DNA of 64,000 nt from the NCBI GenBank assembly GCA_963799995.1, contig CAWCZI010000012.1, positions 1,964,492 through 2,028,491 on the forward strand, read 5' to 3'. Of this stretch, positions 4,461-28,733 are shown in pieces. The position numbers and the translations under genes are program-made. The DNA comes from an uncultured Solirubrobacterales bacterium (GTDB taxonomy: Bacteria; Actinomycetota; Thermoleophilia; Solirubrobacterales; Solirubrobacteraceae). Position 1 is the first letter of the stretch; each line of letters starts with the position of its first letter. A model generated the notes under the pieces. It made no database searches, was not told the DNA's origin, and saw nothing but the letters and a program-made list of their open reading frames with translations.

Positions 4461-4473
4461 GCATACATTATGC
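4461..4473. promoter_or_regulatory. Candidate GntR operator (GCATA-cat-TATGC) upstream of the PuuD-like operon
   Basis: AT-rich 5-bp inverted repeat 8-20 nt upstream of the ATG, overlapping a CATAAT -10-like hexamer on the minus strand. A GntR gene lies in the same operon. Confidence 0.45.
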
Positions 4474-4520
4474 GACTTGCCCTGAGCGCGCCAGTTGTGC
4501 GCTCGACTGGCGGCGGCGCG

Positions 4521-5110: not shown

Positions 5111-5214
5111 GGGGGCACTGGGATCGCAGCGAGCGGGTGAACCCCCGGCCAGTCTCCCTGTCCCAAGCCCGCCTTTTTGCCGAGGCCGACTACTCGGCCG
5201 GGCCCCCGGAGCGA

Positions 5215-9885: not shown

Positions 9886-11057
9886 CGTCGCACTCGCCCG
9901 CGGACCGCTTCGGCGGCGGCCTTCAGCGCCGAGCGCTCCGCGTCACTGAGGTTGAGCTCGACGATCTCGAGCACGCCGCCGCGACCCAGCACCGCGGGCA
10001 CCCCGAGGAACAGGTCCTCGATCCCGTATTCGCCCTGCAGATAGGCGGACACCGGGATCGCTCCGGCCTGGGCGCCGCGGATTGCCTGCAGCAGCTCGAT
10101 CGTCGCGTGGGCCGGCGCGACCGTGGCCGATCCAGTCCGGCGCAGGCTGACCACCGCGCCACCACCGGCGACGGTCTCACGGATGCACGCCTGGATTCGG
10201 TCAACGGGCAGCACGTCGACCAGCGGCCGGCCGCGGACGGTCGCGCCGGAGACGATCGGGACCATCTCGTCGCCGTGGCTGCCCAGCGTGATCGCCTCCA
10301 CGTCGAGCGGCTGGACCCCGGCGGCGGTGGCGATGGCGTTGCGAAAGCGGCTGGAGTCGAGCGTGGCGGCCATCCCGAGGACTCGCTCGGTGCCCAGCCC
10401 GCTCGCGCGCCACAGCTCATGGGTCATTTCGTCGAGAGGGTTGGTGACGACGATCACGACGGCGCTCGGGGCGAACTGCGCGATCGCCTCGCCGGCCCCT
10501 CTGATAACCGGGCCGTTGACCTGCATCATGGCGGCGCGATCCATGCCCGGGGTGCGGGGCCTGCCGGCGGTGACGACGACGACGTCGCAGCCTGCAATCA
10601 GGTCCAGCGTGGTTCCGCCGCGGGCCCGGGTCGGTGACCCGGTGATGCCCGACGCGTGCTCGATGTCGAGCGCGACCGACTCCGCGAGGCCGGGCACGAT
10701 GTCGATCAGGCAGATCTCATCCGCAAACCCGTCGATCGCGGCCAGATGAGCGGTGGTGGCCCCGACACCACCGGCGCCGATGAACCCCAGGCGCGTAAAG
10801 CGTGTGGGGGTCAGCCCGCGCGGCCTGTCGGATGCCACCCAGCGCGCGCCTCGGCGATACAGGCTGCGCCGGATCGCCCGGCCTGGATCCGCGCCGATCG
10901 GCGCCGGCTTCTCGAGCGGGCCGCGGACGATCTCCACGCCGAGGCGCTCGAGCGCATCGAGTGCCTGCGGCGTGACGATGTCGTCGTTGGCAACCACGAG
11001 CCGGCGCTGGCCGCGGCGAAATGCCTCGCGAACGTGCTCCTCGCCGACGACGTTCAT
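9882..11057 (-). CDS. mdh: LDH-like malate dehydrogenase with an N-terminal EutQ-N-like domain (about 85 extra aa)
   Basis: GAGGVG, LIDIV, TAGRPRTPGMDR (Arg at the malate-specificity position), VTNPLD, LDSSRF, GSHGD. N-terminus VREAFRRGQRRLVVANDDIVTPQALDALERLGVEI. Confidence 0.85.
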   Translation of the reverse strand: MNVVGEEHVREAFRRGQRRLVVANDDIVTPQALDALERLGVEIVRGPLEKPAPIGADPGRAIRRSLYRRGARWVASDRPRGLTPTRFTRLGFIGAGGVGATTAHLAAIDGFADEICLIDIVPGLAESVALDIEHASGITGSPTRARGGTTLDLIAGCDVVVVTAGRPRTPGMDRAAMMQVNGPVIRGAGEAIAQFAPSAVVIVVTNPLDEMTHELWRASGLGTERVLGMAATLDSSRFRNAIATAAGVQPLDVEAITLGSHGDEMVPIVSGATVRGRPLVDVLPVDRIQACIRETVAGGGAVVSLRRTGSATVAPAHATIELLQAIRGAQAGAIPVSAYLQGEYGIEDLFLGVPAVLGRGGVLEIVELNLSDAERSALKAAAEAVRGRVRR

Positions 11058-11665
11058 CAACGGCCTTCGAGGGCCTCCAGCGAGGACGCGGCGGTGTCGA
11101 TCGCCAGCCGTACGTCAGCTTCCGAGCCGGAGATGAACATCCGACCAAAGCGCCCCACGGTGCGCACCTCGACGATCTTGATCGTGGCCACCTTCTCGGC
11201 CTCGTTGGCCGCCGCGGCGATGTAGGCCGCGGGCCCGCACTCGAGAATCCCCAGGGTCTCGCCCGGCACGAGCAGCGATCCGCTGCGCCACTTGTTGAGC
11301 AGCTGCGCCTGGTAGGGCTCCACCGAGGTGATGATCTGGCTGGACTCGACGTTCGGGCGCCGGCGCTCGGTGAGGCTCATCCCGAGATGCGACAGGATCG
11401 CCTCGCGAGCGGCGCTCACCTCGGCGTTGGCGGGCGACCGCAGGATGAAGAAGCCAAATTCCCGCTCGACGATCTGCGAGGTCGCCTGGACGTCAGCCGC
11501 CTTCAGGGCGACGTCCACGACACGGAAGACCTCGTTGCCCGGACCGATCTCACCGACCAGGATGGTGTCGCCGGAGAGCGGAATCGAGCCCTGCACCGTG
11601 GCGCCGTTGTAGGCGGCGAACTGGGGCTGAAGCCGATCTATCTGCACCAGCGCGCGGAGGTCCAT
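11057..11665 (-). CDS. BMC shell protein, tandem-domain BMC-T (CcmP/CsoS1D-like double-stacking type)
   Basis: MDLRALVQIDRLQPQFAAY, EIGPG..VVDVALK, VEREFG, LECGPAAY...ANEAEK, GRFGRMFISGSEADV. Confidence 0.9.
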   Translation of the reverse strand: MDLRALVQIDRLQPQFAAYNGATVQGSIPLSGDTILVGEIGPGNEVFRVVDVALKAADVQATSQIVEREFGFFILRSPANAEVSAAREAILSHLGMSLTERRRPNVESSQIITSVEPYQAQLLNKWRSGSLLVPGETLGILECGPAAYIAAAANEAEKVATIKIVEVRTVGRFGRMFISGSEADVRLAIDTAASSLEALEGR

Positions 11666-11710
11666 CAGCTGTGCTCCGGGTAAAGGAGGTCCATCAGCTG
11701 GGCTCCGGGT
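11656..11710. repeat. 26-nt direct repeat (29-nt period) duplicating the AldDH stop / BMC-T start junction
   Basis: ggaggtccatcagctg(t/g)gctccgggt at 11656-11681 and 11685-11710. It creates the minus-strand mini-ORF MDLLYPEHS* (11694-11665). Confidence 0.85.
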
Positions 11711-13091
11711 CGAGGAGGTCGTTCAGCGACCGCCAGGGACGGGACTCGTAGGCGATCCGCTTGATGTTGATGAGATGAAGTGCGGTCACGTTGTCGGACA
11801 CGATCGATCCCGACCAGGTGCCGGTGCCGAGCATGAAGCTCGGGTCGATGTCACAGGAGAAGCCCATGCCGCCGTGCAGCGCCGGCGTGTTGACGAGCAC
11901 GCGGCCGGCAGGCAGGCGCGAGAATCGCGCCACGACGCTCGGATCGTCGGCGTGGACCACGGCGGTGTGGCCTTCGCCGCCGAAGCGCAGGACCTCGAGC
12001 GCCCGCTGCGCCCCCGCCTCGGCGTCGCCGACGTCGTAGAAGGCGAGGACCGGATCCAGCTTCTCGGCCGACAGGGGATCGCTGCGTCCCACGGTCTCGA
12101 GCTCCGCCAGCAGGACCCGCGTGCGGGGCGCCACATCGAAACCGGCCAGCTTGGCCAGGCGGGTCGCCGATTGCCCGACGTTCTCGACCTTCAAGCGAAG
12201 ATTGCGGTCGAACAGGACCTCCGCCAGGGACTCCGCCTGTCGCCTGGTGCACAGGTGGCCGCCCTGCTCGCGGATCGCGTGCCGCAGCCGCTCCGCGATC
12301 GGATGATCGGCGATCACGGCCTGCTCCGCGGCGCACGCCGTGCCGTAATCGAACGACTTGCTCGAGAGGATCATGTCCGCGACCTCGTCGAGGTCTCCCG
12401 CCTTGGAGCGATCGACGTAGACGGGAACGTTGCCGGGTCCGACCGCCAGCGTCGGCTTGCCCGAGGAGTAGGCCGCCCGCACCATCGCCGCGCCGCCGGT
12501 GGCCATCACCACGGCGATCCGGCGGTGGCTCATCAGCTCGCGCGTGCCGTCCAGGGTCGAGCCGTCCAGGCACTGGATCAGGCCCGGCGGCGCCCCCTCG
12601 TCCTCGGCGGCGTCGGCGAGGACGCGAGTTGTCTCGGCGCCGCAGTGGCGTCCCCGGGGATGCGGCGCGTGCACGATCGCGTTGCCGGCCTTCACCGCCG
12701 AGAGCGTCTTGAAGATGACGGTCGAGGTCGGATTGGTCACCGGGATCAGCGCGGCCACGACACCCATCGGCTCGCCGACCGCGATCACCTTGGTCGCCTC
12801 GTCGCGCCACAGCACGCCGAGGGTGCGGACGTTGCGCAACCAGTCCGACACCGCGATCGTGTTGAACAGGTTCTTGAGCGCTTTGTCGCCGGCGTTGCCG
12901 TACCCCGTCTCCTCAGCGGCGAGCTCGCCCAGGCGTGCCGCCTCGGGGGCGATCGCCCGCGCCATCGCCTCGACGACGCGATCGACGTCCGCCGGATCCC
13001 AGGTGCGGAACGTCAGCCAGGCCTCGTAGGCGCGGTCGGCCGCCCGCCGCGCCTGGGCGATCGAGTCCAGGTCGGGGTAGGCGAGCGTCAT
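11694..13091 (-). CDS. CoA-acylating aldehyde dehydrogenase (EutE/PduP/AdhE-N type), 465 aa
   Basis: Start MTLAYPDLD at 13091 (ATGA overlap). PVTNPTST, HAPHPRG, ATGGAAMVRAAYSSGKP, VGPGNVP, SKSFDYGTACAAEQ (catalytic Cys), EKLDPVL, GHTA. Confidence 0.92.
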   Translation of the reverse strand: MTLAYPDLDSIAQARRAADRAYEAWLTFRTWDPADVDRVVEAMARAIAPEAARLGELAAEETGYGNAGDKALKNLFNTIAVSDWLRNVRTLGVLWRDEATKVIAVGEPMGVVAALIPVTNPTSTVIFKTLSAVKAGNAIVHAPHPRGRHCGAETTRVLADAAEDEGAPPGLIQCLDGSTLDGTRELMSHRRIAVVMATGGAAMVRAAYSSGKPTLAVGPGNVPVYVDRSKAGDLDEVADMILSSKSFDYGTACAAEQAVIADHPIAERLRHAIREQGGHLCTRRQAESLAEVLFDRNLRLKVENVGQSATRLAKLAGFDVAPRTRVLLAELETVGRSDPLSAEKLDPVLAFYDVGDAEAGAQRALEVLRFGGEGHTAVVHADDPSVVARFSRLPAGRVLVNTPALHGGMGFSCDIDPSFMLGTGTWSGSIVSDNVTALHLINIKRIAYESRPWRSLNDLLDPEPS

Positions 13092-14190
13092 GCCAGCGCC
13101 TGCTCGAGCAGGGAGGCGTCGCCGCCGTCCAGGGCACGGCGGACGTCGTCGGGCCGGAAGCGGTCCAAACCAAGGCTCGGCAGGGTTCGCCCGTGCCGCG
13201 TGTAGTCGAGGCCTGCGAGGACCGAGCCGATATCGACGAGCGCAGCCGCGGTGCGAGTCGGGATGCCGGCCAGCGCGCCGGCGCTGATCGAGCGGCACCA
13301 GCGAGCAGCACAGCGCGTCGTGGACGCGGGGGTCGTCGCTCGCGAGCGCGGGACCGAGGTCCTCCTGCACCGGGGCCGGCGGGAGGTCGCGCACCCCGAA
13401 GGCAAACGCCACCCGGCGGCGCTCGTCGTCGATCCGCCGCGCGACCGACGCGAACTCGCGCAGCAGCGCCGGCGCGACGTCTCTGATTCCGGAGAGGTCC
13501 GAGAAGCTGGTCTCGAGCACACCGCGAGCGGGGATGAGCATCGGCAGCAGGGCCCGCAGCCGCTGCACCGCGTCCTCGGTGGCGCGGTTGGGCAGCGCCG
13601 CCGCGGGCACCTCCGCGCTCACGGCCGCGAGCGTGAGCGCACCCGGTTCAGAGGACTCGACCCGGTAGGGCGAAGCCGCCAGCTCGACGATCGTCGGAAG
13701 GTCCGGCGCAGGCGAAACGGCGCAGCGAGCGGGCGACCTCGACGGCCCCGAACGAGCGTCCTGGGACCAGCACCAGGAGCTGCTCGGGCCGCAGCCGGCC
13801 CGCCAGCAGGCCGCCGCAGGTGGCGTGGGCGATGCCGGGAGTCGCGACCAGGATCGCGTCGGCTTCGGTCACGGCGTCGTCGATCCCGGTTCTCAGGCCG
13901 ATCGCCGGCTGGGCGGATGGGCCGTCGGCCAGCCGGTAGGTGCCGACCAGATGCTCGCCCCGCACGGTCACCGCCCGCGGCGCGGCCAGCGCCGCGCGCT
14001 CGGGCTCGAATGCCGTGTGAAGCGTCACTTCGCACTCGGCCGCCAGACACTCGCAGGCCAGGGCCTGGCCCACCGGTCCGGCTCCCAGCACGGCGACGCG
14101 GCGCAGCGGGCGGCGCTCGGGCACCCCGGCCGCCGGCTTGACCTCGTTGAGGTCGGCCAGCAGCGCTTCGAATTCGCCGGCAGAGGTCAT
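13088..14190 (-). CDS. Opine (octopine/nopaline) dehydrogenase-like protein, frameshifted at about 13710 and 13291, apparently catalytically divergent
   Basis: Three frame segments: Rossmann VAVLGAGPVG...ADAILVATP...LVPGRSFGA; then PTIVELAASPY...LETSF...IDDERRRVA; then LVP..ISAGALAGIPT...GRTLPSLGL. This is the opine-DH domain order. Alternative start at 14211. Confidence 0.72.
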
Positions 14191-14215
14191 CCTCGCCGCC
14201 GACCGGGCCATGCGG

Positions 14216-14512
14216 CTACTCGCTGGCGGAGCCGGAGATCATCGAAGCGAGGTCGCCATGTGGCCGGGCGATGACATGGATCGACAGGACCTCGCCGACC
14301 TTGTTGGCGGCCACACCACCGGCGTCCGTCGCCGCCTTGACGGCGCCGACGTCGCCGCGGACGATCACCGTCACCAGGCCGCCGCCGACCCGCTCGTTCG
14401 TGACCAGCTCGACGTTCGCGGCCTTGACCATCGCGTCGGCGGCCTCCAGCGCTGGAACCAGGCCTCGAGTCTCGATCATCCCTAGCGCTACCTGCGGGGT
14501 TTCCGCCATCAC
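14216..14512 (-). CDS. BMC shell hexamer protein (BMC-H, EutM/PduA-like)
   Basis: [28 protein letters not shown]...[23 protein letters not shown]...HVIARPH. Confidence 0.96.
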
Positions 14513-14820
14513 TTGCTCCTTGTCTTGGTGGGCTGTTTGCGGCTCGACGTGCCGGCGTGCAGGTTGACGGCATCGACGATCGCGACGATCGTCAGGTCGG
14601 TGGCGGCCGCGCGCGACTGCGGCGGCTGCCGGGCCGCCGACCCGCGCGTGATCAGCACCTGATCACCGGGCCCGGCACCGACCGTGTCAACGGCGACCTC
14701 GGCCGGTCTGGCATCAGAACCGGCCGGGTCCAGCGGCTGGACGATCAACAGCTTGTGCGAGAGCAGGCTCTCGGTCTTCGCGGTCGCGGTCACCGAGCCG
14801 AGCACTTGCGCGAGCTCCAT
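14509..14820 (-). CDS. BMC vertex pentamer protein (BMC-P, EutN/CcmL family) with a basic C-terminal tail
   Basis: [48 protein letters not shown]. Confidence 0.95.
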
Positions 14821-14872
14821 CAGTGGCGCCCCGGGTGGCGGTTATGCTCGGCTATTTCCGCAATCATGGACG

Positions 14873-14889
14873 TTCGTGTACCGTATACA
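14873..14889. promoter_or_regulatory. Candidate GntR operator in the divergent BMC/oxidase promoter region
   Basis: Its reverse complement TGTATACGGTACACGAA is 15/17 identical to 19986-20002. Confidence 0.6.
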
Positions 14890-14918
14890 GTGACCCGAGG
14901 GAATGCAAGGGCCGGGCA

Positions 14919-14970
14919 CCGGGAGGACAGCTGATGGCCGGGACCCGGGAGGAGAGCTGATGGCCGGGAC
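14919..14970 (+). repeat. 26-nt tandem duplication of RBS plus start codon
   Basis: ccgggagga(c/g)agctgatggccgggac x2. The first copy encodes MAGTREES*, whose TGA overlaps the real ATG (TGATG). Confidence 0.85.
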
Positions 14971-16105
14971 GAGCGATGCGGTCGTGATCGGAGCCGGCAT
15001 CGCCGGAGCCTCGGCGGCGCTCGCGCTGCGCAGGCGTGGGCTCGACGTCACGCTGATCGATGCACGGGAGCCCGGACACGCGCGCGCAGCCTCCGCCGGA
15101 GATCACCGCATCCTGCGCGCCAGCCACGGGTCGGATCAGCTGTACACCCGCTGGAGCCGGGAGGCGCGTCTGCGCTGGATGGAGCTCGGAGCCGAGGTCG
15201 GCCAGGAGCTGTTCGTCCAGAGCGGAGCGGTCATGCTCGCCAAGGCCGGACACACGCAATGGGAGGACGCCTCCCGCGACACCCTCGCCCGGCTGGGGGT
15301 TCCGAGCTTCGTGGTCGACGTGGACGAGCTGCGCCTGCGCCTGCCGCTGATCGACCCGCGCGGCCTGGCGTACGGCCTGTGGGAGCCCGAATCCGGATTC
15401 GTGTACGCGCGGCGAGCCGTCCAGGCGACGGTCCGGCTGTTCGTCGAGATGGGCGGGGTTCTGCGGCGCGGCGTGGGCGGCACCGACGAGCGTGAGCGTC
15501 CCCTGGTCGACGGCCGGCCGATCGAAGCGGGCGTCATCGTCTTCGCCTGCGGCGCCTGGATGGGCCGGCTCTTTCGCCGCACCCTGGGGCAGCTGCTCGA
15601 CATCGTCCGCCAGGATGTGATGATGGTCGAGCCACCACCCGGGGCGACCGGCTATGACGCCGACAGCTTCCCGGCCTGGATCGATCATGGGTATCCCGCC
15701 TACGGGATACCGGCGTCCGGCGGCTACGGCTTCAAGGCGGTGCTCAACTGGCGCGGCATCACGCTCGACATAGACCGCGATGACCGCTTGATCTCCCCCA
15801 CGTCGGTGGCCCGCACGCGGCGCTATCTGGCTCATCGCTTTCCCGCGCTGGCCAACGCGCCGATCGTCGGCCAGGAGGTGGGCCAGATCGCCAACACCAC
15901 CGACACCCACTTCCTGATCGACCACCACCCCGCGCACGACCGCCTCGTGCTCGTGGCCGGCGACTCGGGACACCTGTTCAAGCATGGTCCCGTGGTCGGT
16001 GACCACATCGCCGCGCTCGCGCTTAACGAGATCGACCCCGAGCCGCGTTTCAGCCTCGGCAAGCGCCCCGCCGTGGCGGTCACGTCGGCCGACCGCCCGC
16101 AGTAG
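14960..16105 (+). CDS. FAD-dependent amine oxidoreductase (monomeric sarcosine oxidase/DAAO family), 381 aa
   Basis: AVVIGAGIAG, ASAGDHRILR, FACGAW, TTDTHFLIDHHP, AGDSGHLFKHGPVVG. Confidence 0.88.
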   Translation: MAGTSDAVVIGAGIAGASAALALRRRGLDVTLIDAREPGHARAASAGDHRILRASHGSDQLYTRWSREARLRWMELGAEVGQELFVQSGAVMLAKAGHTQWEDASRDTLARLGVPSFVVDVDELRLRLPLIDPRGLAYGLWEPESGFVYARRAVQATVRLFVEMGGVLRRGVGGTDERERPLVDGRPIEAGVIVFACGAWMGRLFRRTLGQLLDIVRQDVMMVEPPPGATGYDADSFPAWIDHGYPAYGIPASGGYGFKAVLNWRGITLDIDRDDRLISPTSVARTRRYLAHRFPALANAPIVGQEVGQIANTTDTHFLIDHHPAHDRLVLVAGDSGHLFKHGPVVGDHIAALALNEIDPEPRFSLGKRPAVAVTSADRPQ

Positions 16106-16121
16106 AGGACGATCGGTCCGC

Positions 16122-16931
16122 TCAGAGGGACGCAAGAAACGCGTCCACGACCTGGTTGAAGCCGTCGGCCTCCTCGAGGAACGGACAGTGGCCGCTGTCT
16201 TCGAACAGCTCTACTGCGGCCTGCGGGATGTTCTCTTTCAGGTGGGCTGCGCCTGAGACGGGGAGTAGCGCGTCGTGGCGGCCCCAGCAGACCAGAGTCG
16301 GAACGTCGACGGCGGGCAGAACCTCGCGGTAGTCCTGCACCGACTGATCGAACAGAATCGCGCTGAGCGGGCCGATCGGGAGGCGGGCGCACTCATGGAC
16401 CATCCACTCGGCGTCCTCGGGGGCCGGTTCATGGTTGAACATCAGGGCGACCAGATGGCGCAGAAATGCGTCCCTGTCGGCTTGGACATCGCTCATCAGC
16501 GAGGTGAGCGTTTCCAGATCGATGAAGCCGTGGGGAAAGCCATCCCATTTGAAATCCGAGGCGGCCTCGTCGACGACGATCAGTCCCCGCAGGTCACCGG
16601 TGCCGAACTGGCGTATGTAGTCCCAGGCGACGAATGCCCCCATCGACCAGCCCAGGAGGACCGGCCGGGCGAGGCCAAGCGCGTCCACGAACAGCTTCAG
16701 ATCGCGCGCGTACTGAGAAACCGTATGGCCGGACTGCACCTTCTCAGAACCGCCGTGGGCTCGTAGGTCCACGGCCAGGACCCGATGATCGGCGCTGAGT
16801 GGCTCGAGCTGGCGATGGAAGTAGCGCCTGCTCATCGACACGCCGTGGATCAGCACCACGGGCGGGGCGGTCGGATCCCCGGCGTCGTCGTAGGCCAGCG
16901 TTATCCCGTTCGAAAGGCGGATCTCGGGCAA
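16122..16931 (-). CDS. Alpha/beta hydrolase (non-heme chloroperoxidase/arylesterase-like)
   Basis: LIHGVS, DLRAHG, nucleophile GWSMGA, GRHDALL, GHCPFLEE. Confidence 0.88.
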   Translation of the reverse strand: MPEIRLSNGITLAYDDAGDPTAPPVVLIHGVSMSRRYFHRQLEPLSADHRVLAVDLRAHGGSEKVQSGHTVSQYARDLKLFVDALGLARPVLLGWSMGAFVAWDYIRQFGTGDLRGLIVVDEAASDFKWDGFPHGFIDLETLTSLMSDVQADRDAFLRHLVALMFNHEPAPEDAEWMVHECARLPIGPLSAILFDQSVQDYREVLPAVDVPTLVCWGRHDALLPVSGAAHLKENIPQAAVELFEDSGHCPFLEEADGFNQVVDAFLASL

Positions 16932-16941
16932 GGCAGGCTCC

Positions 16942-18351
16942 TCAGAACTGAAACGGGCGGTCGATGCCGGCCAGCGAGACGCCGGTGAATGCCGACGCTT
17001 CGAGCGTCAGCGCGCGGAGGTCCTCGGGCTCGAGGTTGTGCACCGATGACTTGCCGCACGCCTTGGCCAGCAGCGTGGCCTCCATCGTCATCGCGGTCAG
17101 CAGACGCAAGGTTCGCTCCGCGCCGGCCTCGACATCCATCCGCTCCTCGAGCTCGGGGTCCTGGGTGGTGATCCCGACCGGGCAGCGACCGGTATGGCAG
17201 TGATGACAGGAGCCGGGAGCGGTCCCGAGGGCGGCGTAGTCGTCGACGTAGCGCGGCGAATTACAACCGAGCCCGATCAGCGCCGCGGTCGCGATCATCG
17301 CGCAGTCGGCGCCGAGGGCGAGCGCCTTGGCGACGTCGACCCCGGAGCGGATGCCGCCGGAGACGACGAGCTTCACCTTGTCGGCCATCCCGCAGTCCTC
17401 GAGCGCGCGGCGCGCGGCGGGGATTGCGGAGATCAACGGCACCCCGGTGTGGTCCAGCAGCATCTCGGGCGAGGCGCCGGTCGAGCCCTCCATCCCGTCG
17501 AGCACGATCACGTCGGCACCGGTCTTGGCCGCCACCGCCACGTCGTAGTAGGGACGCGTCGCCCCGAGCTTGATGAAGATCGGGACGCGGTAGCCGGTGG
17601 CGTCGCGCAGCTCCTCGATCTTGATCTGCAGATCGTCGGCGCCGAGGAAGTCTGGATGGCGGACGGTCGCTCGCTGGTCCACTCCGAGCGGAAGCGAGCG
17701 CATGCGGGCGACTCGCTCGGAGACCTTCATGCCCAGCAGCAGCCCGCCGGTACCGGGCTTGGCGCCCTGCCCCACCACGACCTCGATCCCGTCGGCGCGG
17801 CGCAGATGGTCGAGGTCGAGCATGTAGCGCGACGGGGTCAGCTGGTACACGAGCGTCTGCGACTCCGCGCGCTCGTCCTCGAGCATGCCGCCCTCGCCCG
17901 TGCAGGTCATCGTGCCGGCCCGCGAGGCACCCCGGCCGAGCGCGGCCTTGGCGCTCGCCGACAGCGCGCCGAAGCTCATCGACGCGATGTAGATCGGGAT
18001 CTCGAGCTCGATCGGCTCCTCCACCAGTCCCAGCCCATCTCCCAGAACCGTTTTCGTGTCGCATTTCTCGCGGTAGCCCTCCAGCGGCAGCCGCGTCATC
18101 GTCGCCGGCTGGAAGACGAGATCGTCGAAGCTGGGCAGCTGGCGCTGGAAGGTGGAGAAGCCGCGGATCTGATAGCGCCCGAGCTGTGCCTTGGCGTGAA
18201 TGTCGGCGATCGCCGCCGGCGTCCACCGCGACGAGCCGCCGCGGGTGTAGGACCGGGCCACCCCCGCCGGCCGGCCGGCCTGCGCTCCGTCGGAGAACGC
18301 CGCCGGGTCCTCTTCGGGGTGGCCGTTGGCGCCGTTCAGATCATCAGCCAT
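16942..18351 (-). CDS. glxD: FMN-binding glutamate synthase-family subunit (GlxD / N-methylglutamate synthase MgsC-like)
   Basis: MSFGALS, TGEGG, GQGAKPGTGG, DGMEGSTGA, SGGIRSGVDVAKALALGAD, CHHCHTGRCPVGITTQDP. Start at MADDLNG. Confidence 0.85.
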   Translation of the reverse strand: MADDLNGANGHPEEDPAAFSDGAQAGRPAGVARSYTRGGSSRWTPAAIADIHAKAQLGRYQIRGFSTFQRQLPSFDDLVFQPATMTRLPLEGYREKCDTKTVLGDGLGLVEEPIELEIPIYIASMSFGALSASAKAALGRGASRAGTMTCTGEGGMLEDERAESQTLVYQLTPSRYMLDLDHLRRADGIEVVVGQGAKPGTGGLLLGMKVSERVARMRSLPLGVDQRATVRHPDFLGADDLQIKIEELRDATGYRVPIFIKLGATRPYYDVAVAAKTGADVIVLDGMEGSTGASPEMLLDHTGVPLISAIPAARRALEDCGMADKVKLVVSGGIRSGVDVAKALALGADCAMIATAALIGLGCNSPRYVDDYAALGTAPGSCHHCHTGRCPVGITTQDPELEERMDVEAGAERTLRLLTAMTMEATLLAKACGKSSVHNLEPEDLRALTLEASAFTGVSLAGIDRPFQF

Positions 18352-19016
18352 TGCTGCGCATCCCTTGACTCGAAGTGCCACAGCGCCTGCGCGGAGACGA
18401 TGCGCTGCCACGTCTGCCCCTCATCGCCGATGCCGAGGCCGGCGAGCAGCGCCCACACCTCCGCGACCTCGTCGGCCGGCGGCTCCTCGATCCGTGCGTC
18501 GACACCGAGACCGCCGATCGTGCCGGCGACCCAGATCTCCCCCTCCCACAGCGAGTCACCCGCGGCATCGGCGGTGTCACCGAGGCAGATCACCCGCCCC
18601 CCGTGGGCCATGAAGCCGCAGGCATGGCCGAGCGAGCCCTCGACCACGATCACCCCGCCCTTCATCGCCACGCCGCAGCGCGGACCGGCGTTGCCGCGCA
18701 CGTGGATCGTGCCTCCGCGGATCGACGCGCCGACGCTCATCGCGGCGTTGCCCTGCACGGTGATGTGCCCGCTGGCCATCGCCTCCCCGACGCCCCAGCC
18801 GGCATTGCGGGTGATCGTGATGCCGGCACCGTTGTTGAGGCCGCCGCAGTAATAGCCCACCGAGCCTTCGAACGTCACCTCGCCCCCTGGCGGCAACGCA
18901 ACGCCGAGATTGTGACGTGAGAGCGGCTCGGTCACGCGCACGTGCTCGCCGGCGGCGACGGCCGCCCGGATCTCCTCGTTGACCTCCCGCAGGGGACGAT
19001 CCCCGGCTCGGATCAC
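18336..19016 (-). CDS. glxC: GXGXG-domain subunit (GlxC / MgsB-like)
   Basis: Repeated GxxxG beta-helix (GSVGYYCGG, GNAGPRCG, GFMAHGG); flanked by glxB and glxD homologues. Confidence 0.85.
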   Translation of the reverse strand: MIRAGDRPLREVNEEIRAAVAAGEHVRVTEPLSRHNLGVALPPGGEVTFEGSVGYYCGGLNNGAGITITRNAGWGVGEAMASGHITVQGNAAMSVGASIRGGTIHVRGNAGPRCGVAMKGGVIVVEGSLGHACGFMAHGGRVICLGDTADAAGDSLWEGEIWVAGTIGGLGVDARIEEPPADEVAEVWALLAGLGIGDEGQTWQRIVSAQALWHFESRDAQQWLMI

Positions 19017-19963
19017 GCGGCCGCCCCCACCGCCACCGGCGAGCGGACGGACCAGATGCGAACGATCGACGGACCGTCGTGGACCTCTACGTCGACCTCG
19101 TCGACGTAGAGCGTGCGCAGCGCCTGCTCCTCGGTGGCGACGGCGACGCCATCGGGTCCGATCACCGCGACGACCGGCTTGATCGCCCAGCGATCCTTGG
19201 CCAGTGCGATCCCGTCGGGGGTGGCCAGCAGATATGTGAAGACGCCGTCGAGCTCGCTCAGGCTGCGCTCGAGCGACTCCTGAAGCGAATCGCCGGCCGC
19301 CATCCGCACCGAGTTCCAGACCGCGATCAGCTCGCTGTCGTTCTCGGTCGTGAAGCGGTATCCCTGCCGCTGCAGGCGCCGCCGCCAGGTGTAGTAATTG
19401 GTCAGCTGCCCGTTGTGGACGATCGCCACGTCGGGAAACGGCCGCGCCCAGAACGGATGGCCCGCGACCGGTGACACATTCGACTCCGTGGCCAGACGAA
19501 CGTGACCGAGGCCATGCGTCCCGATGAACTCCTCCACCCCGTGCTTGGATGCCACCTCGCCGGCGTCGCCGACGTCCTTGACGATCTCCAACGCGCGCCC
19601 GGCCGACTGAAGCTCGACCCGGTCAAGCGCGTCGCAGGCGTCGACCCAGGCTGAGAACGGCTTGGGATCGGAGACCACGAGCCTCGCCAGCACATGCCGT
19701 TGGCCGCTCTGGTCCCAGGTCGGCTCCTGCACGAAGTCCGCGCCGTGCTCGCGAGTGACGCCGCGCAGAGCCTCGAGATCCTGATCCAGGTGACCGCGGT
19801 CGGCAAGGAGCGCGCGCACGACGAACGCATCCTCGCGCGGCGTTCCATACAGCGCGAACCCAGTGCTGTCCCACCCCCGGTGACGCTGCGCGGCCATCAT
19901 CGCCGTCAGGTCGGCGCCGAGACGGCCCGGCTCATTCAGCGTCCGGCCTGCGATCCCGCACAT
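19013..19963 (-). CDS. glxB: Class II glutamine amidotransferase subunit (GlxB / MgsA-like)
   Basis: N-terminal MCGIAG, HRGWDSTG, GHVRLATES, HPF, VHNGQLTNY, NDSELI. Confidence 0.87.
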   Translation of the reverse strand: MCGIAGRTLNEPGRLGADLTAMMAAQRHRGWDSTGFALYGTPREDAFVVRALLADRGHLDQDLEALRGVTREHGADFVQEPTWDQSGQRHVLARLVVSDPKPFSAWVDACDALDRVELQSAGRALEIVKDVGDAGEVASKHGVEEFIGTHGLGHVRLATESNVSPVAGHPFWARPFPDVAIVHNGQLTNYYTWRRRLQRQGYRFTTENDSELIAVWNSVRMAAGDSLQESLERSLSELDGVFTYLLATPDGIALAKDRWAIKPVVAVIGPDGVAVATEEQALRTLYVDEVDVEVHDGPSIVRIWSVRSPVAVGAAA

Positions 19964-19985
19964 ACAGGGCTCTCCCTTTCGTTAT

Positions 19986-20002
19986 TGCATACCGTACACG
20001 AA
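19986..20002. promoter_or_regulatory. Candidate GntR operator overlapping the putative glxB -10 box
   Basis: TGCATACCGTACACGAA. The minus strand reads TTGTGA-17 nt-TACGGT, followed by RBS GGGAG. Confidence 0.6.
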
Positions 20003-20049
20003 ACACGAGACCCTCACAAGACCACCCGGGCGCCGAGATGCAACAAGTC

Positions 20050-20763
20050 CTAGGCGGCTCTTGATGCCCGGCGGCGCCGGGCCGTGCCGGCGCTGGGCGA
20101 CTTGGCCGCCGCGCCCTTCACGGTGCGCTCGAGGCCCCACGCGATGTGCTCGATCATCGCGCGGCGAGCGCGCACCGGATCACCGGCGGCGATCTCCTTG
20201 ATCAGCGCCTCGTGCTCGGCCACGAACGCGTCGTGCGGCGAGTGAACGTAGAAATCGTGGTACGCGAGAGCGCTGATGGCCCGGCCCCAGATCGCGTCGA
20301 AGAAGTTGAGCAGGTACGAGTTGCCGGTTGCCTGCACGATTGACCGGTGAACCGAGCGGTTGGCTTCGAACGACTCCCGGGTGGACCGCAGCTTTCTCGC
20401 GGTGGCCGCCGCGAGCGCGTCCCTCACCTGCGCCAGCGCGTTCGGACCGAGCTCAGCGACGATCGCGGCGGCGTGGCCCTCGACCGCGTCTCGCGCCCCG
20501 TAGAGATCGCGCACGTCTGAGTCCGACAGGCTGCGCACGACGTATCCGCGGCGTCCTGAAGGCTCCACCACGCCCTCTTCCTTGAGCCGCAGAAGAGCGT
20601 CGCGCACCGGCGTCCGGCTGACGTCGAGCTCTTCGGCCAGGCGGTCCTGGATCAGCCGATCGCCGGGATTGACCGTCCCCTGCACCAGCGCCTCGACGAG
20701 CCGGTCATAGACCTCGCTCGCGAGCCGGGAGTGCGAGCGGTCGATGCGCTGGATTGCTGCCAT
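20050..20763 (-). CDS. GntR/FadR-family transcriptional regulator
   Basis: LDVSRTPVRDALLRL wHTH; FCD domain NRSVH...EHEAL. Confidence 0.93.
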   Translation of the reverse strand: MAAIQRIDRSHSRLASEVYDRLVEALVQGTVNPGDRLIQDRLAEELDVSRTPVRDALLRLKEEGVVEPSGRRGYVVRSLSDSDVRDLYGARDAVEGHAAAIVAELGPNALAQVRDALAAATARKLRSTRESFEANRSVHRSIVQATGNSYLLNFFDAIWGRAISALAYHDFYVHSPHDAFVAEHEALIKEIAAGDPVRARRAMIEHIAWGLERTVKGAAAKSPSAGTARRRRASRAA

Positions 20764-20772
20764 GGTCGCAGT

Positions 20773-21225
20773 CTAAAGACCTTCACCATCAATGGACGGA
20801 GTTCGATATCCGGTAATCGCGTCCACCTCCACCTCCACCATCAGCCCCGGAGTCGCCAGCTGCGCCCCGACGACGGTCAGCACCGGAGCCGCGTCTCCGA
20901 GCGCCTCGCGGTGAGCCCGCGCGAACGCGGCGGCGTCGGCCATGTCAACCAGGTAGGCGCGGGTGCGGACCACGTCGCTCAGGCTCGCGCCCACGGCTCG
21001 CAACGCCGCATCGATGCGCTGCAGGGTGAAGCGGGACTGGGCGGCCGTGTCGCCCGGCTGATGGACGCGCCCTGACCGCTCGACGGCGGTCGTGCCGGCC
21101 ACATAGACGAACGGGCCGACCCGCTTGGCGCGGACATATCCGGCGAGCTCCTCGAAGCGGCCGCCGTCACGGTGCTCGGCGCTCTCCCAGCCCTCCGCGG
21201 CTCCCATCCCCTCGACAGCCTCCAT
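20773..21225 (-). CDS. RidA/YjgF-family protein
   Basis: GYVRAKRVGPFVYVAGTT, DVVRTRAY, VEVEVDA. Start at MEAVEG. Confidence 0.85.
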   Translation of the reverse strand: MEAVEGMGAAEGWESAEHRDGGRFEELAGYVRAKRVGPFVYVAGTTAVERSGRVHQPGDTAAQSRFTLQRIDAALRAVGASLSDVVRTRAYLVDMADAAAFARAHREALGDAAPVLTVVGAQLATPGLMVEVEVDAITGYRTPSIDGEGL

Positions 21226-21249
21226 CGTCTCACCTCGTATGCGGTGTTT

Positions 21250-21266
21250 CGCGTTCCGTACACGAT
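21250..21266. promoter_or_regulatory. Weaker copy of the candidate operator upstream of ridA-gntR
   Basis: CGCGTTCCGTACACGAT, 13/17 identical to 19986-20002. Confidence 0.4.
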
Positions 21267-21292
21267 AGCTCCGGGCGCGGGCGCCCGGGGGG

Positions 21293-22389
21293 TTAGTAGA
21301 CGATGACGCTGCGGGCTGTCTCCCCCGCCTGCATGCGCGCGAACGCATCGTTGACTTCGTCCAGCCCGCAGGTGGTGATAAGGGGTGCGAGGCGCAGCCG
21401 GCCGTCGCGGTAGAGGTCGACGAGGAGGGGGATGTCGCGCAGCGGCACGCAGGAGCCATACCAGGAGCCGCGCACGCACCTTTCCTCCAGGGTGGTCGTC
21501 AGCGCGTCCAGTGCCACCCGGGTCTCGGGTGAGGCCATACCGATCAGAACCGCCTGGCCGCCGCGGCTGGTCAGCGCCACCGCGGTGTCGATCGTGTCCG
21601 GACGTCCCAGCGCCTCGAAGGCGTGGTCGACGCCACCTCCGAGCAGCTCGGTGACGGCCTCGACGGGGTCGCACTCGGCGGCGTTCACGACCGCGGTCGC
21701 GCCCAGCTCGCGAGCCAGCTCGAGCTTGGCGGCGACGACGTCGACCGCCACGATCGTGCTCGCGCCCGCGATCCGTGCCCCCTGCACGACGTTGAGGCCG
21801 ACACCCCCGCACCCGACCACCGCCACGGAGTCGCCGGGGCGCACGTGCGCGGTGTTGATGGCCGCTCCCACCCCGGTCATGACGGCGCAGCCCATCAACG
21901 CGAGCTCGGTCAGCGGAAGGCCGGGATCGACCTTCACCGCCGTCCGCGCCGGCACCACCGAGCACTCGGCGAACGAGGACGTGTTGTAGTGATGAACCGG
22001 CTCCCCGTCACGGCTGAAAGCGGCACGTCCCGTCCTCCATCGTCGCGTCGTACCAGGCCGTGTTCTCGCAGATGTTCGGCCGCCCGCGCGCGCATTGGCG
22101 GCAGTGCCCGCAGTAGGGAAGCCAGGTCAGCAGGACATGGTCGCCCGGACGCAGGCCGACCACGCCCGGACCGACCTGCTCCACCACGCCCGCTCCCTCG
22201 TGGCCGAGGACGACCGGGAGCGAGGTCGGATGGATCGCCCTGGGCGACGTGAAGGTCGGAGTGGCAGACGCCGCTGGCCGCCATGCGAATCAGCACCTCG
22301 CCCGTCTTGGGCGGATCGAGCTCGAGGTCCTCGATCACGAGCGGCTGCCCGAATTCGTGCAGGACGGCGGCCCGTATCGGCGTCGACAT
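21293..22389 (-). CDS. Zn-dependent alcohol dehydrogenase (class III/aryl-alcohol type), two +1 frameshifts (about 22238 and 22019)
   Basis: ASGVCHSDLH, then (shifted) GHEGAG...CGHCRQC...C, then GCAVMTGVG, GCGGVG, GSWYG. The net frame change matches two single-base insertions. Confidence 0.85.
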
Positions 22390-22401
22390 GAGTTCTCCCC
22401 T

Positions 22402-23656
22402 TCAGCCGGACTTTTGCCCGGGCGACCGGACACGCACGGGCAGCGACTTGAACCCGTTTACGAAGTTCGAGCTCAGGCGAACCGGAGCCCCCGCGAGCTC
22501 GAAGCGGACATCCCGGGCCAGGATCTCCTCGAGCAGGACCCTGAGCTCGAGGCGGGCGAGGAACGAGCCGAGGCAGAAGTGCGGACCCCCGCGTCCGAAC
22601 GTCGTGTGCGGGTTGCGCCGGCGCCCGACGTCAAAGCGCTGCGGGTCCTCGAACACGTCCTCGTCGAAGTTGGCCGACAGGTACCACAACGCCACCCGAT
22701 CGCCGGCCTGGATCGGCACCTCGCGGATCTCCGTGTCCCGGGTCGCGGTCCGCCTGAAGTAGATCAGCGGCGTGCCGTAGCGCAGGATCTCATCGACCGC
22801 GGTTGGCACCAGCGACGGATCCGCCACCAGTCGCTCGAACTGATCTGGATGCTGCATCAGGGCAAGGATCCCCTGCGAGATTCCGGTGCGGGTGGTCTCG
22901 TTGCCGGCGAAGATGAACAGCTGGAAGAAGTTGGTGTACTCGGTGTCGTCCAGGTGCTCACCCTCGACCTCGGCGTGCACGAGCCGGGAGACCAGGTCAT
23001 CGCGGGGCTGCCCGCCGCCGCTCCGCCCCGATCCTGCGCCCGTACTCGAACACCGTGTGCGCGGCCGGCGTGCCGAACGGGAGCAACCGCGGATCGATCT
23101 CGCTCGGGTACTTGACGGGATCGGGCCGGTAGTCCGCGTCCGTGGCCGCCGCCATCTCGCTCGTCAGCTCGATCAGCATCGGAACGTCCTCGGCGGGCAG
23201 CCCGAGAATCGCGATCAGCACCGTGACCGGCACCGGCTCGGAGATCTCGGTCACCCAGTCGAATTCCCGCTTGGCGATCGCGGTATCCAGGAGGTCTCCG
23301 ACGACGGTGCGCGTGTACTGCTCGTACTCCCGGACCCGAGTCGGGGTGAACGCGTAGCTGACGAGCTTGCGCAGCCGGGTGTGCGCGGGCGGGTCGGTCT
23401 CGATCATCGACTGGCGCGCGGCCAGCGCGTCGGGCTCGCGGTCCTCCAGCGCGATGTGGCCGAGCTGTGAGGAGAAGCGCTGCGTGTCGCGGCTGACGGC
23501 GACGACATCGGCGTGCTTGGCCAGCAGCCAGAAGCCACCGCGTGTGCCCGGCCACGGATGCCAGTGCACGGGGTCGTCTCGTCGCAGCGCCGCCAGTGTC
23601 TCGTGCGGCACCCCTTCGGCGTAGACCTTCGGGCTCGCGACGTCGATGTGGCTCAC
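22402..23656 (-). CDS. Cytochrome P450, +1 frameshift at about 23012
   Basis: DPPAHTRLRK, FAGNETT, EILRY, heme motif FGRGGPHFCLG. GTG start overlaps the upstream stop. Confidence 0.9.
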
Positions 23657-24231: not shown

Positions 24232-25788
24232 TCAAGCCGTGACGGATGCGCCGCGCTTGCGCTGGTATGCCCGCCAGGTGGGCGCCCACCGCTCCGGGTC
24301 GTCGTGTGGTGCCTGGTCGAGCTGGTGAACCGTGCTGCGCTGCGGGGACGTCATCACAATCTCGGGAGTCTCGTACGCCTCGCGGGCGACCTCGGCGATG
24401 ATCTCCGCGTACTCGTCGAGGTCCGCCCGCGAGTAGGACTCCGAGGGCTCGAGCGTCATCGGCTCGGCGACCAGCCATGGTTCGTGGCTCGGGAAATAGC
24501 TGGCGACGCCGAAGTCGGCGGTTCGCCGGGCGACGTCAACCGTACTCACGCCGGTGTCCTCATGGAGCCGCGCGAGGCTGTAGCGGATCTGCTCCAGCCG
24601 GCGCGCGGGATTCGTGTCCGCGAACGAGACGTCGAGGCCGGGCACGCCGGCCAGCCGCGAGGCCAGATAGTTGTTGTTCAGGACGGCGGTCTGCGCGACT
24701 TCCCTGAGCCCCTCGGCGCCGAGGCTGAGGATCCACGCGAACGAGCGCACGACCGTCGCCGGGACGCCATGGAAGGCGCGGATCTTGCCGACCGATTGCG
24801 GCCGGTCGTACTCGAGCCGGTACCGCGAGCCGTCGAATTCGACCGTCGGCACGGGCAGGAAGGGCTCGAGCTCGGCGGTGACGCCGCAGGCGCCGACCGG
24901 CATGCCCATCGAGCAGTGCGGCGAGGAGAACGTCTTGTGCAGGTTGAACTGGCACAGGTCGAAGCCCGCGTCGCCCGCACGGGTGATGCCGAGGATCCCG
25001 TTCGCGTTGGCCTGGTCGTAGTGGCACAGGCCGCCCGCCTCGTGGACGATCTCCACGATCTCCTCGATGTGCGGGTTGAAGAGCCCGGTGTCCTCGGGGT
25101 TGGTGATCATCAGACCCGCCGTGCGCTCCGAGACCGCCTTCCGGATCGCGTCGGGCTCCGGGTATCCCTTCTCGCCCGCATAGACCGTGATCACCTTGCA
25201 GCCCGCGGTGGCCGGCCCCGCGCCGTCGCAGGGGTGCGAGAAGATCGTGGTGATGATCTCGTCGCGGTCGGAATCGCCTCGGGCGGCGTGGTAGGCGCGG
25301 ATCATCCTCGCGTTGGCGTACACGCCCTGCGACCCACCCGCCGGCTGAAGCGTGAAGCGCGACAGACCGGAGATCGAGCACAACATGCGCTCGAATCGGT
25401 AAAAGACCTCGAGCATCCCCTGCACCGTCTCGTCGTCCTGCAACGGGTGCAGATCGGCGACCTTCGGCGAACGGATCAGCTCCTCGTTGACCTTCGGGCT
25501 GTACTTCATCGTGCAGGTGCCCAGGCCGAGATGGATGTTCACGTCGTTGCCCAGCGTCTCCTGCGACAGGCGGAGGTAGTGGCGCAGAACGCGCTGCTGG
25601 CTGCACTCGGGCAGCTGCGGCGGGCGCGAGCGGCGAAGCTCCTGAGGAATACCGGTCAGCGGTTCCTGCTCGGCGCCGGCGAGCTCGGGCTCGACCTGCG
25701 GCGGGATGATGCCGCGCTCGCCCGGACTCGAGAGCTCGAGCAGGATCGGCTCATTCCAGCTGGCCTGATGAAAGGGACGAAGGGTCAT
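24232..25788 (-). CDS. gcvPB: Glycine decarboxylase P-protein subunit 2-like (divergent)
   Basis: GLGTCTMKYSP, LQPAGGSQG, YDQANANG, FNLHKTFSSPH (PLP Lys), EPSESY. Start MTLRPFHQ overlaps the gcvPA stop. Confidence 0.85.
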   Translation of the reverse strand: MTLRPFHQASWNEPILLELSSPGERGIIPPQVEPELAGAEQEPLTGIPQELRRSRPPQLPECSQQRVLRHYLRLSQETLGNDVNIHLGLGTCTMKYSPKVNEELIRSPKVADLHPLQDDETVQGMLEVFYRFERMLCSISGLSRFTLQPAGGSQGVYANARMIRAYHAARGDSDRDEIITTIFSHPCDGAGPATAGCKVITVYAGEKGYPEPDAIRKAVSERTAGLMITNPEDTGLFNPHIEEIVEIVHEAGGLCHYDQANANGILGITRAGDAGFDLCQFNLHKTFSSPHCSMGMPVGACGVTAELEPFLPVPTVEFDGSRYRLEYDRPQSVGKIRAFHGVPATVVRSFAWILSLGAEGLREVAQTAVLNNNYLASRLAGVPGLDVSFADTNPARRLEQIRYSLARLHEDTGVSTVDVARRTADFGVASYFPSHEPWLVAEPMTLEPSESYSRADLDEYAEIIAEVAREAYETPEIVMTSPQRSTVHQLDQAPHDDPERWAPTWRAYQRKRGASVTA

Positions 25789-27179: not shown

Positions 27180-27205
27180 GTGGGTGACCTCCTCAGGGCC
27201 GTTCA

Positions 27206-28312: not shown

Positions 28313-28626
28313 CTCACGCCGGTCAGAATGCCTCGTCCAGGCCGCACGGCGCCGCCACAAAGCTGTCGCTCTCCACTGCGCTCCCTCCTTGAGTTGCGGA
28401 AGCATACGCTGCCGGTGCAGGCACGTCAGGTGCACCTCGGGTGCCCGGGTAGTGACGCTGATACGCTCGTTGAGGGTGAGCCGCATGGGTTCAATGATCG
28501 GCTTCGTCGACCGCTGGGTGGTGCTCGCGGGACGGACATGCTGCGCCGGGCGCTCGTGGGAAGGTCTGGACCGCAGCCTGGATCGGCGGGCAGGTGAGAC
28601 GCCGCCCGGCTCCTGCCAGCCCTTGG

Positions 28627-28662
28627 GGTCGGTTGCCTCGGAGCGGTCGGTTGCCTCGGAGC
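28627..28662. repeat. 18-nt perfect tandem repeat upstream of the dehydratase
   Basis: ggtcggttgcctcggagc x2. Confidence 0.8.
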
Positions 28663-28733
28663 GCTCGAACGGCTCGGGCCGCGCGGACGAGCCGGTGCTC
28701 GCCGCCGAAGACGTCAGGACCTAGTCCCGGCAC

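Follow-up and report, generated by a model that had tools for sequence, protein, structure and literature searches.

Why should the promoter regions of a bacterial microcompartment (BMC) operon, a sarcosine-oxidase-like flavoenzyme, a glutamate-synthase-like glxBCD operon and a regulatory gene share the same short sequence? The question is raised by a locus on contig CAWCZI010000012.1 of an uncultured Solirubrobacterales bacterium, within a stretch of 64,000 nucleotides that we call the window and whose first letter is position 1. An earlier reading of this DNA from its letters (the sequence-only reading) had noticed three similar 17-mers, and had proposed that the GntR-family regulator encoded among them controls the BMC, oxidase, glxBCD and ridA-gntR genes as one regulon. 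Conserved footprints, the co-occurrence of motif and regulator, cross-validated weight matrices, an invariant helix and synteny support this proposal. On such comparative evidence, the three elements (O1, O2 and O3) are very probably operators of the FCD-type GntR encoded at 20050-20763. There is nothing unusual in a palindromic operator for an autoregulated GntR repressor; the significance of this one lies in the genes that it joins.

The three sites and their specificity

Re-reading the sequence recovered the three 17-mers where they had been placed: TGTATACGGTACACGAA (the reverse complement of 14873-14889), TGCATACCGTACACGAA at 19986-20002, with 15 of 17 matches to the first, and CGCGTTCCGTACACGAT at 21250-21266, with 13 of 17 matches to the second. 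They are indeed intergenic. The first falls in the gap between the ATG of BMC-P (14820, minus strand) and the in-frame ATG of the FAD oxidase (14960), the second 23-39 nt upstream of the glxB ATG (19963), inside the 86-bp gap that follows gntR, and the third 18-34 nt upstream of the ridA ATG (21231). They had also been described as AT-rich for this genome, which fits a GC content of 41% at the first site against about 70% in the whole window.

A frame shifted by one base describes the element better, as a 17-bp inverted repeat, YCGTRTAC-S-GTAYACGR, in which two 8-bp halves surround one central C or G (8-1-8). This consensus was derived from the symmetrised counts of 23 sites. The TGYA-N5-TACA dyad of the sequence-only reading survives as the inner part of the repeat in O1 and O2 and is absent from O3. 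The right half of O3 is consistently degenerate, of the GAAYTCGG type, and the same variant stands upstream of gntR in a more distant locus (L012), which would fit a lower-affinity, autoregulatory site. A TCGTGT direct repeat precedes O2. The TAC-S-GTA centre is itself palindromic, and in some relatives the element is therefore extended, its register being shifted by 7 bp, as in TCGAATAC-G-GTATAC-G-GTACTCGA of L016.

The motif is rare outside these sites. Within the 64 kb, the 10-mer CSGTACACGA has only three exact matches, those at O1-O3, and the degenerate 17-mer with at most three mismatches was found twice where 0.10 occurrences were expected. To avoid circularity, a symmetrised forward matrix was trained only on sites of loci L012-L015, whose GntR proteins are 52-63% identical to that of the window and which include one Mycobacterium. 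Over the 64 kb it ranked O1, O2 and O3 first, second and third (23.6, 23.0 and 19.8 bits), and the next-best match (13.4 bits) overlapped O2. The maxima of 200 shuffles averaged 11.7 bits (standard deviation 2.2), the largest being 19.3. A reciprocal matrix, for which the window clade alone supplied the training sites, gave strong matches of 20-28 bits in L012, L013 and L015-L018 and weaker matches in L014, and all of them adjoin a GntR orthologue. It found no site above 11 bits in L010 and L011, whose GntR relatives are 34-38% identical and likely paralogues. The weight-matrix scan of orthologous promoters that the sequence-only reading had suggested as a check thus recovers the sites in both training directions. 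With a matrix built from all sites, a scan of 288 kb gave no match of at least 15 bits inside genes, every one being intergenic.

These figures bear on the idea that the resemblance is due to chance, or is left over from a recent duplication of a promoter segment. The sites are short and the third has only 13 of 17 identical positions, as such an origin would allow, but the shuffle statistics speak against chance, the sequences around the three sites show no alignment with one another, and each site keeps its orthologous place in many lineages. Because of the cross-lineage weight-matrix tests we exclude both variants of this idea, to which we give practically no weight. A riboswitch or hairpin was also rejected, because no Rfam match was found in 14000-22500 at E <= 1 and because single-strand folding of O1-O3 was no better than that of shuffles.

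Close relatives show the sites as conserved islands amid the diverging intergenic DNA of orthologous loci. A search with the GntR protein gave three loci in metagenome-assembled genomes (MAGs) of Solirubrobacterales (L001-L003, 80-87% identical), and a search of metagenome contigs gave six further close relatives (L004-L009, 74-90%) besides L010 and L011. When four orthologous O1 regions were aligned, 16 of the 17 operator columns were invariant, against a mean column identity of 67%; O1 of L001 contains the perfect 14-mer TACCGTATACGGTA. O2 lies inside a 25-bp block that is invariant among the four loci aligned, and O3 is conserved despite a spacer that varies from 60 to 160 bp among orthologous regions, with further copies in L004, L008 and L009. 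In L001 a 1.7-kb insertion places two genes, one class-I amidotransferase-like and one for a short-chain dehydrogenase/reductase, between gntR and glxB. The operator still stands directly upstream of glxB, and is therefore part of the glxB promoter and not of the gntR 3' end.

Table 1. Predicted sites and genes of the locus, with positions in the window
Feature	Position	Strand	Description
O1 (predicted operator)	14874-14890		In the 139-bp divergent region BMC-P/FAD oxidase; plus strand TCGTGTAC-C-GTATACAG
O2 (predicted operator)	19985-20001		Plus strand TTGCATAC-C-GTACACGA; towards glxB (minus) TCGTGTAC-G-GTATGCAA
O3 (predicted operator, likely autoregulatory)	21249-21265		Towards ridA-gntR (minus) TCGTGTAC-G-GAACGCGA
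Weak fourth candidate site	4459-4475		AT-rich near-palindrome ATGCATACATTATGCGA; 9.8 bits with the forward matrix
Putative BMC promoter	14880-14908	minus	-35 TTGCAT (complement 14903-14908), 17-nt spacer, -10 TACGGT (complement 14880-14885)
Putative glxB promoter	19991-20019	minus	-35 TTGTGA (complement 20014-20019), 17-nt spacer, -10 TACGGT (complement 19991-19996)
RidA	20773-21231	minus	RidA-family imine/enamine deaminase (Pfam PF01042), first gene of ridA-gntR operon
GntR	20050-20763	minus	FadR subfamily, winged helix-turn-helix + FCD, 237 aa; proposed to bind O1-O3
glxB-glxC-glxD-hydrolase operon	16122-19963	minus	Assigned with Pfam
glxB	19013-19963	minus	GATase-2 (PF13522/PF13537)
glxC	18336-19016	minus	GXGXG (PF01493)
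glxD	16942-18411	minus	FMN glutamate-synthase domain (PF01645)
Hydrolase	16122-16931	minus	Alpha/beta hydrolase
FAD oxidase	14960-16105	plus	Monomeric sarcosine oxidase / N-methyltryptophan oxidase type (Pfam DAO), divergent from BMC operon
BMC operon	6807-14820	minus	Abutting or overlapping genes
BMC-P	14509-14820	minus
BMC-H	14216-14512	minus
Opine dehydrogenase/6-phosphogluconate dehydrogenase (6PGDH)-like	13091-14211	minus	Broken into three frames
Aldehyde dehydrogenase (AldDH)	11694-13091	minus	CoA-acylating
BMC-T	11057-11665	minus	BMC-Tdp
Lactate/malate dehydrogenase (Ldh/Mdh)-like	9882-11060	minus	90-aa N-extension (Pfam match from residue 91)
Metallo-beta-lactamase (MBL) fold protein	9112-9885	minus
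Aminotransferase	7808-9115	minus	Class III
APH kinase	6807-7811	minus

The regulator and the loci that share the motif

The regulator belongs to the FadR subfamily by its domains, a GntR domain (PF00392, E = 1.7e-16, residues 14-76) followed by an FCD domain (PF07729, E = 6.4e-20, residues 86-208), and by a predicted palindromic operator at its own promoter and those of its putative targets. Pfam found no UTRA domain, which sets it apart from the HutC type, and the closest solved structures in the PDB are FCD-type GntR regulators, including McbR and PdhR. No named NCBIfam equivalog is reached, the best being PhnR (TIGR03338; 89.2 bits against a cut-off of 271.5), and the database and cluster names of the closest relatives are generic. 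The recognition helix VSRTPVRDAL, within the conserved winged helix-turn-helix block PGDRL..D.LAE.L.VSRTPVRDAL, is invariant across 11 aligned orthologues; two less similar FCD-GntR sequences in the alignment have VSRIPVREAL and VSRPTLREAL. Only 9 bp separate ridA from gntR, which form one operon.

This arrangement resembles that of other FadR-subfamily repressors, which join a winged helix-turn-helix to an FCD domain, bind 17-bp operators with two 8-bp inverted halves, one central base and a GTATAC-type core, and have a site at their own operon, over -10 regions. Palindromic operators are known for the FadR-subfamily regulators FadR of E. coli (17 bp), GntR of B. subtilis (TTGTATACAA core), PdhR, LldR and McbR. 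To our knowledge, YCGTRTAC-S-GTAYACGR matches no characterised operator of the subfamily.

How far does the motif follow the regulator? Homologues of the protein range from 100% down to about 41% identity, and contexts were fetched for eight of them and for three homologues of the BMC-associated opine-dehydrogenase-like protein. The motif co-occurs with GntR orthologues of 100% to 50% identity in independent lineages, before the same gene classes. The richest case is L013 (GntR 60% identical), where an operon of glutamine synthetase (GS), BMC-P, BMC-H, OctDH, AldDH and BMC-T diverges from a DAO-family oxidase gene and glxDCB diverges from ridA-gntR, a permease gene being also present; each of the three intergenic regions has the motif, as does the DNA upstream of the permease gene. 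In L017 (50%), glxBCD, GS, BMC-P, BMC-H, AldDH, BMC-T, Ldh, gntR and the DAO gene follow one another, and the motif is found upstream of glxB and BMC-P. L021 has gntR together with the DAO, GS, BMC, glxBCD, RidA and permease genes, with the motif in the divergent region between DAO and GS/BMC, at glxB and, more weakly (15 bits), between permease and ridA. L020, in which no gntR was seen, has DAO, GS, BMC and permease genes, with the motif in the DAO-GS/BMC region and at the permease. L014 (57%; metallophosphoesterase, permease, AldDH) has one weak site of about 13 bits after gntR. Thus the DAO, GS/BMC, glxBCD, RidA and permease genes occur together in Actinobacteriota, and an alphaproteobacterial MAG of Hyphomicrobiales (L019) shares most of the set (DAO, GS, BMC genes and RidA). 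RidA recurs in L013, L019 and L021.

Some orthologues are found away from any shell. In L015 (Mycobacterium sp. 852013-50091) and the metagenome contigs L016 and L018 (GntR 51-55%) the motif lies upstream of gntR and of genes for a Rieske oxygenase, a GS-like enzyme, a ferredoxin and a reductase. This gene set resembles that of aniline dioxygenase and has the same GntR orthologue and operator, with no microcompartment. These loci suggest that the regulator family may serve several amine pathways of the gamma-glutamylation type. L012 (GntR 63%) carries DAO, FMN dehydrogenase, hydrolase and B12 diol dehydratase genes, with the motif upstream of gntR and of the DAO gene. The window itself has a fused large/medium subunit of a B12 diol dehydratase (28734-30983), an NAD-kinase-like gene (27206-28486) and a glycine-cleavage P protein in 24232-30983, and L012 has the same dehydratase and NAD-kinase neighbours beside its GntR. 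The weight-matrix scan of the window found no operator at the promoters of the 24232-30983 genes.

The sites might be real and yet bound by another transcription factor encoded elsewhere, the GntR being a passenger or having another target. The MIC2-like locus L019 (for this type, see below) would fit this, as it has a variant palindrome, CTGTRTAC-T-GTATACAG, in which TG replaces CG in the half-site, at equivalent places (699-729, in the DAO-GS/BMC region, and 6350-6373, at the junction of RidA and an ABC transporter), and shows no gntR on its truncated contig. Some loci also have other regulators nearby (L013 has a helix-turn-helix-cupin protein, the P0086 contig a Crp-like one), and binding of the GntR to the sites is itself a prediction from sequence. 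Against this, the FCD-GntR orthologue is the sole regulator in all readable motif-bearing loci (L012-L018, L021), a site stands upstream of gntR itself in most of them, the VSRTPVRDAL helix does not vary among the orthologues, and the 17-bp, 8-1-8 symmetry suits a FadR-type dimer. Because the GntR is the one regulator common to these loci, and usually has its own site, we consider a different binding factor unlikely.

Putative promoters and a proposed mode of control

The sites also coincide with what look like promoters. The -10-like hexamer TACGGT facing the BMC operon is the centre of O1, and the geometry TTGCAW-17-TACGGT (TTGCAT or TTGCAA) is found towards this operon in the window, L001-L004 and L013. 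Read on the opposite strand, the same centre gives TACCGT and faces the oxidase. The putative glxB -10 hexamer lies inside O2, and TTGTNN-17-TACGGT is kept in the window clade (L001-L003). O3 is just upstream of the ridA Shine-Dalgarno sequence.

With TANNNT-type hexamers on both strands of the core, and a GGAAC after O3 that is reminiscent of the -35 boxes of extracytoplasmic function sigma factors, the shared sequence could itself belong to a promoter, perhaps one read by an alternative sigma factor, as its discriminator or -10 element. We find this very improbable, because the element has dyad symmetry, can face the downstream gene in either direction and stands at only 3 of the approximately 45 gene starts of the window. 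Its conservation also extends far beyond a hexamer, and it tracks one regulator gene from Solirubrobacterales to a Mycobacterium across the examined loci.

Control by the GntR could then work as follows. A dimer would bind the 17-bp inverted repeat, and because the TAC-S-GTA centre carries a -10-like TACSGT, a dimer sitting there would keep RNA polymerase out. Occupancy of O1 would shut the back-to-back promoters of the BMC operon and of the sarcosine-oxidase-like FAD oxidase, that of O2 the promoter of the glxBCD-hydrolase operon, and that of the weaker O3 would throttle the regulator's own ridA-gntR operon. Repression would end when the FCD domain takes up a pathway-related small molecule, perhaps the amine itself or an intermediate of the gamma-glutamyl or N-alkyl-glutamate kind. 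That the protein binds, that it represses and that it responds to such an effector is inferred, and the most likely arrangement appears to be an effector-released repressor with negative autoregulation.

The same protein might act on these sites as an activator or a dual regulator, given that the sign is derived only from position and that the promoter hexamers, TANNNT-type at the -10, are poor (6 of 12 positions of the E. coli consensus). This is rather unlikely in our view. The operator centre covers the conserved -10-like TACGGT with its spacer, which suggests a repressor, and at ridA and at the GS gene of L013 the operator lies between promoter and Shine-Dalgarno sequence, positions that are typical of repression. 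FCD-type catabolic GntRs are mostly effector-released repressors.

Several observations weigh against control by a GntR repressor at these sites. The right halves of O1 and O2 are imperfect in the window (6 of 8 positions each), the glxB promoter of L013 has a different geometry, and the palindrome of L019 has no gntR in view. A generic scan for sigma-70 promoters and terminators called no promoter at any of the three sites. The sequence-only reading had the sites overlapping plausible -10 hexamers, and this overlap consequently rests on the conserved TANNNT-type hexamers, TACGGT among them, and on no called promoter. The sequence was matched only in DNA runs of soil and peat metagenomes and in no transcript runs. 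Finally, the motif could have been frequent at random positions genome-wide, and its specificity was judged over 288 kb, less than a whole genome: within these there was no strong genic match, and off-target frequency is covered to that extent.

The microcompartment type and its possible pathway

The regulon bears on a class of microcompartments without assigned function. MIC1 and MIC2 are BMC loci named 'metabolosome with incomplete core' (Sutter et al. 2021, PMC8217296, Supplementary Data 2), and were catalogued with no known substrate, aldehyde-generating signature enzyme or regulator (PMC8217296; see also Axen 2014). The MIC2 type has an AldDH, an extended pfam02866 dehydrogenase, a 6PGDH-like protein, GS and a minimal H/P/Tdp shell (PMC8217296). 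The window shares with it the AldDH, the pfam02866 Ldh/Mdh with N-extension (about 70-90 aa in MIC2) and the frameshifted, opine-dehydrogenase-like 6PGDH relative. Its shell proteins have one match each in the window, and its BMC-T is 80% identical to an L013 protein carrying CsoS1D_N. In contrast to MIC2, the window operon lacks GS and adds the MBL, aminotransferase and kinase genes. GS (pfam00120) opens the BMC operon in L013 and L019-L021, and in L017 it immediately precedes BMC-P; the sole GS-like gene of the window (about 44193-45624) lies outside the regulon operons and has no operator. Neither glxBCD nor the DAO oxidase, nor RidA, nor any GntR is named for MIC2 in the catalogue.

A second comparison is with the RMM1/AAUM amino-propanol microcompartment, which is characterised by an APH-family kinase and a class-III aminotransferase such as those encoded at 6807-9115, the end of the window BMC operon. 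This locus has a GntR in M. smegmatis (MSMEG_0268) and in Rhodococcus erythropolis MAK154 (Urano et al. 2011, as cited in PMC4207490). Both systems place a GntR-family regulator in an actinobacterial BMC locus for the catabolism of amines or amino alcohols. Unlike the window GntR with its FCD domain, MSMEG_0268 is listed as HutC-type, with the predicted operator ACCGTCTACATCGT, and unlike RMM1 the window has a MIC2-like shell and enzyme set. The locus looks like a hybrid of MIC2 and RMM1, with a possible second route to an aldehyde.

The sequence-only reading had called the glx genes methylamine genes, a label that the gene content does not establish. The glx operon, 70-81% identical to the L013 genes, has the three-subunit architecture of MgsABC (GATase-2, GXGXG and FMN-GltS) in three adjacent genes, as in the N-methylglutamate pathway, although architecture does not set the substrate. 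A GS-like gene is adjacent in relatives, and an oxidase step on an N-alkyl amino acid is plausible. Unlike that pathway, the window regulon has no GS or gmaS and no mgdABCD; a single-subunit enzyme resembling monomeric sarcosine oxidase or N-methyltryptophan oxidase stands in place of the latter (NF008425, N-methyltryptophan oxidase, 182 bits; TIGR01377, monomeric sarcosine oxidase, 154 bits; both below the curated cut-offs). The genes are, moreover, coupled here to a shell and a CoA-acylating AldDH that is closest to acetaldehyde dehydrogenases (464 bits, below cut-off), a coupling that is not known for the N-methylglutamate pathway. Methylamine is one possible substrate only.

A regulatory precedent may be PipR (MSMEG_6700), a FadR-type GntR of piperidine and pyrrolidine catabolism in M. 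smegmatis (Poupin et al. 1999, as cited in PMC2018728). PipR controls the catabolism of a secondary amine in an actinobacterium. The source that gives an operator for MSMEG_0268 gives none for PipR. Presumably a GS-like gene lies beside pipR, which would resemble the GntR, GS-like, oxygenase and ferredoxin genes of L015, L016 and L018. Our literature search gave no paper that links microcompartments to glxBCD or the N-methylglutamate pathway, and none that describes the regulator or operator of the window.

Taken together, the gene functions are consistent with an unproven route from an amine through an N-alkyl-glutamate and an aldehyde to an acyl-CoA in the shell. GS and/or GlxBCD would convert the amine to an N-alkyl-glutamate, which the sarcosine-oxidase-like enzyme would oxidise to an imine; RidA-assisted hydrolysis would yield the aldehyde, and the AldDH inside the shell would turn it into the acyl-CoA. 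A bolder speculation, which we put forward only tentatively and hold to be doubtful, is that the regulon is the missing front end of MIC2-type metabolosomes and the flavoenzyme their long-sought 'signature enzyme', in the extreme with methylamine as substrate and a shell that confines formaldehyde.

The shared operator and synteny put a shell operon of unknown function together with a GlxBCD-type, N-alkylglutamate-synthase-like enzyme, a sarcosine-oxidase-like oxidase and RidA, to which relatives add a GS-like enzyme and an amino-acid permease. What is new here is this link between a BMC type of unknown function and a defined set of enzymes, which the predicted regulon supports as a testable lead on MIC2 function. 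It also offers handles on the MIC2 substrate, with the regulator for effector screening and the operator as a reporter, and the weight matrix may be used to look for further regulon members in Solirubrobacterales, Mycobacterium and others.

The weak fourth candidate is 6 nt upstream of a likely ATG (4453) of a gene with the Pfam Peptidase_C26 domain, encoding a PuuD-like gamma-glutamyl hydrolase. If real, it would bring this hydrolase into the regulon. Two higher-scoring matches fall within genes and were dismissed, one at 23046-23062 (12.8 bits) and one at 8754-8770 (12.1 bits).

Several genes of the window are interrupted. The opine-dehydrogenase/6PGDH-like gene is read in three frames where the L001 gene is intact, and an apparent 642-aa 'AldDH' open reading frame (ORF) is an artefact, an open frame running out of this frameshifted gene. 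A Zn-dependent alcohol dehydrogenase (ADH) gene (21293-22389) is split into ADH_N and ADH_zinc_N ORFs, and a P450 gene (22402-23803) is probably split too, its 192-aa ORF being only the C-terminal P450 part and the adjacent 268-aa ORF having no Pfam match. These frameshifts likely reflect indel errors of long reads or genuine decay. They leave the intergenic sites unaffected, and independent assemblies corroborate these sites.

Two junctions of the locus are duplicated. In 14910-14970 a 26-bp tandem duplication (2.3 copies) of the junction GGGAGGAnAGCTGATGG, with the oxidase Shine-Dalgarno sequence and ATG, gives rise to an upstream ORF of 8 codons (MAGTREES*), and the TGA of this ORF overlaps the true oxidase start at 14960; in L001 and L003 the junction is present once. 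In 11656-11727 a 29-bp tandem duplication (2.5 copies) of a similar stop/start junction, AGCTGATGG, between the AldDH stop and the BMC-T ATG, creates a 9-codon mini-ORF (MDLLYPEHS*). It is odd that translational-coupling junctions should be duplicated twice, independently, within one operon, and the duplications could be real or an assembly artefact. Beyond the BMC operon, the intergenic region 4540-5120 is packed with repeats, comprising arrays of the 10-mer GCCCGAACCG and a roughly 40-nt hairpin (GTGCGTCCTCAT...ATGAGGACGCA), present three times, that resembles repetitive extragenic palindromic (REP) or miniature inverted-repeat transposable elements (MITE).

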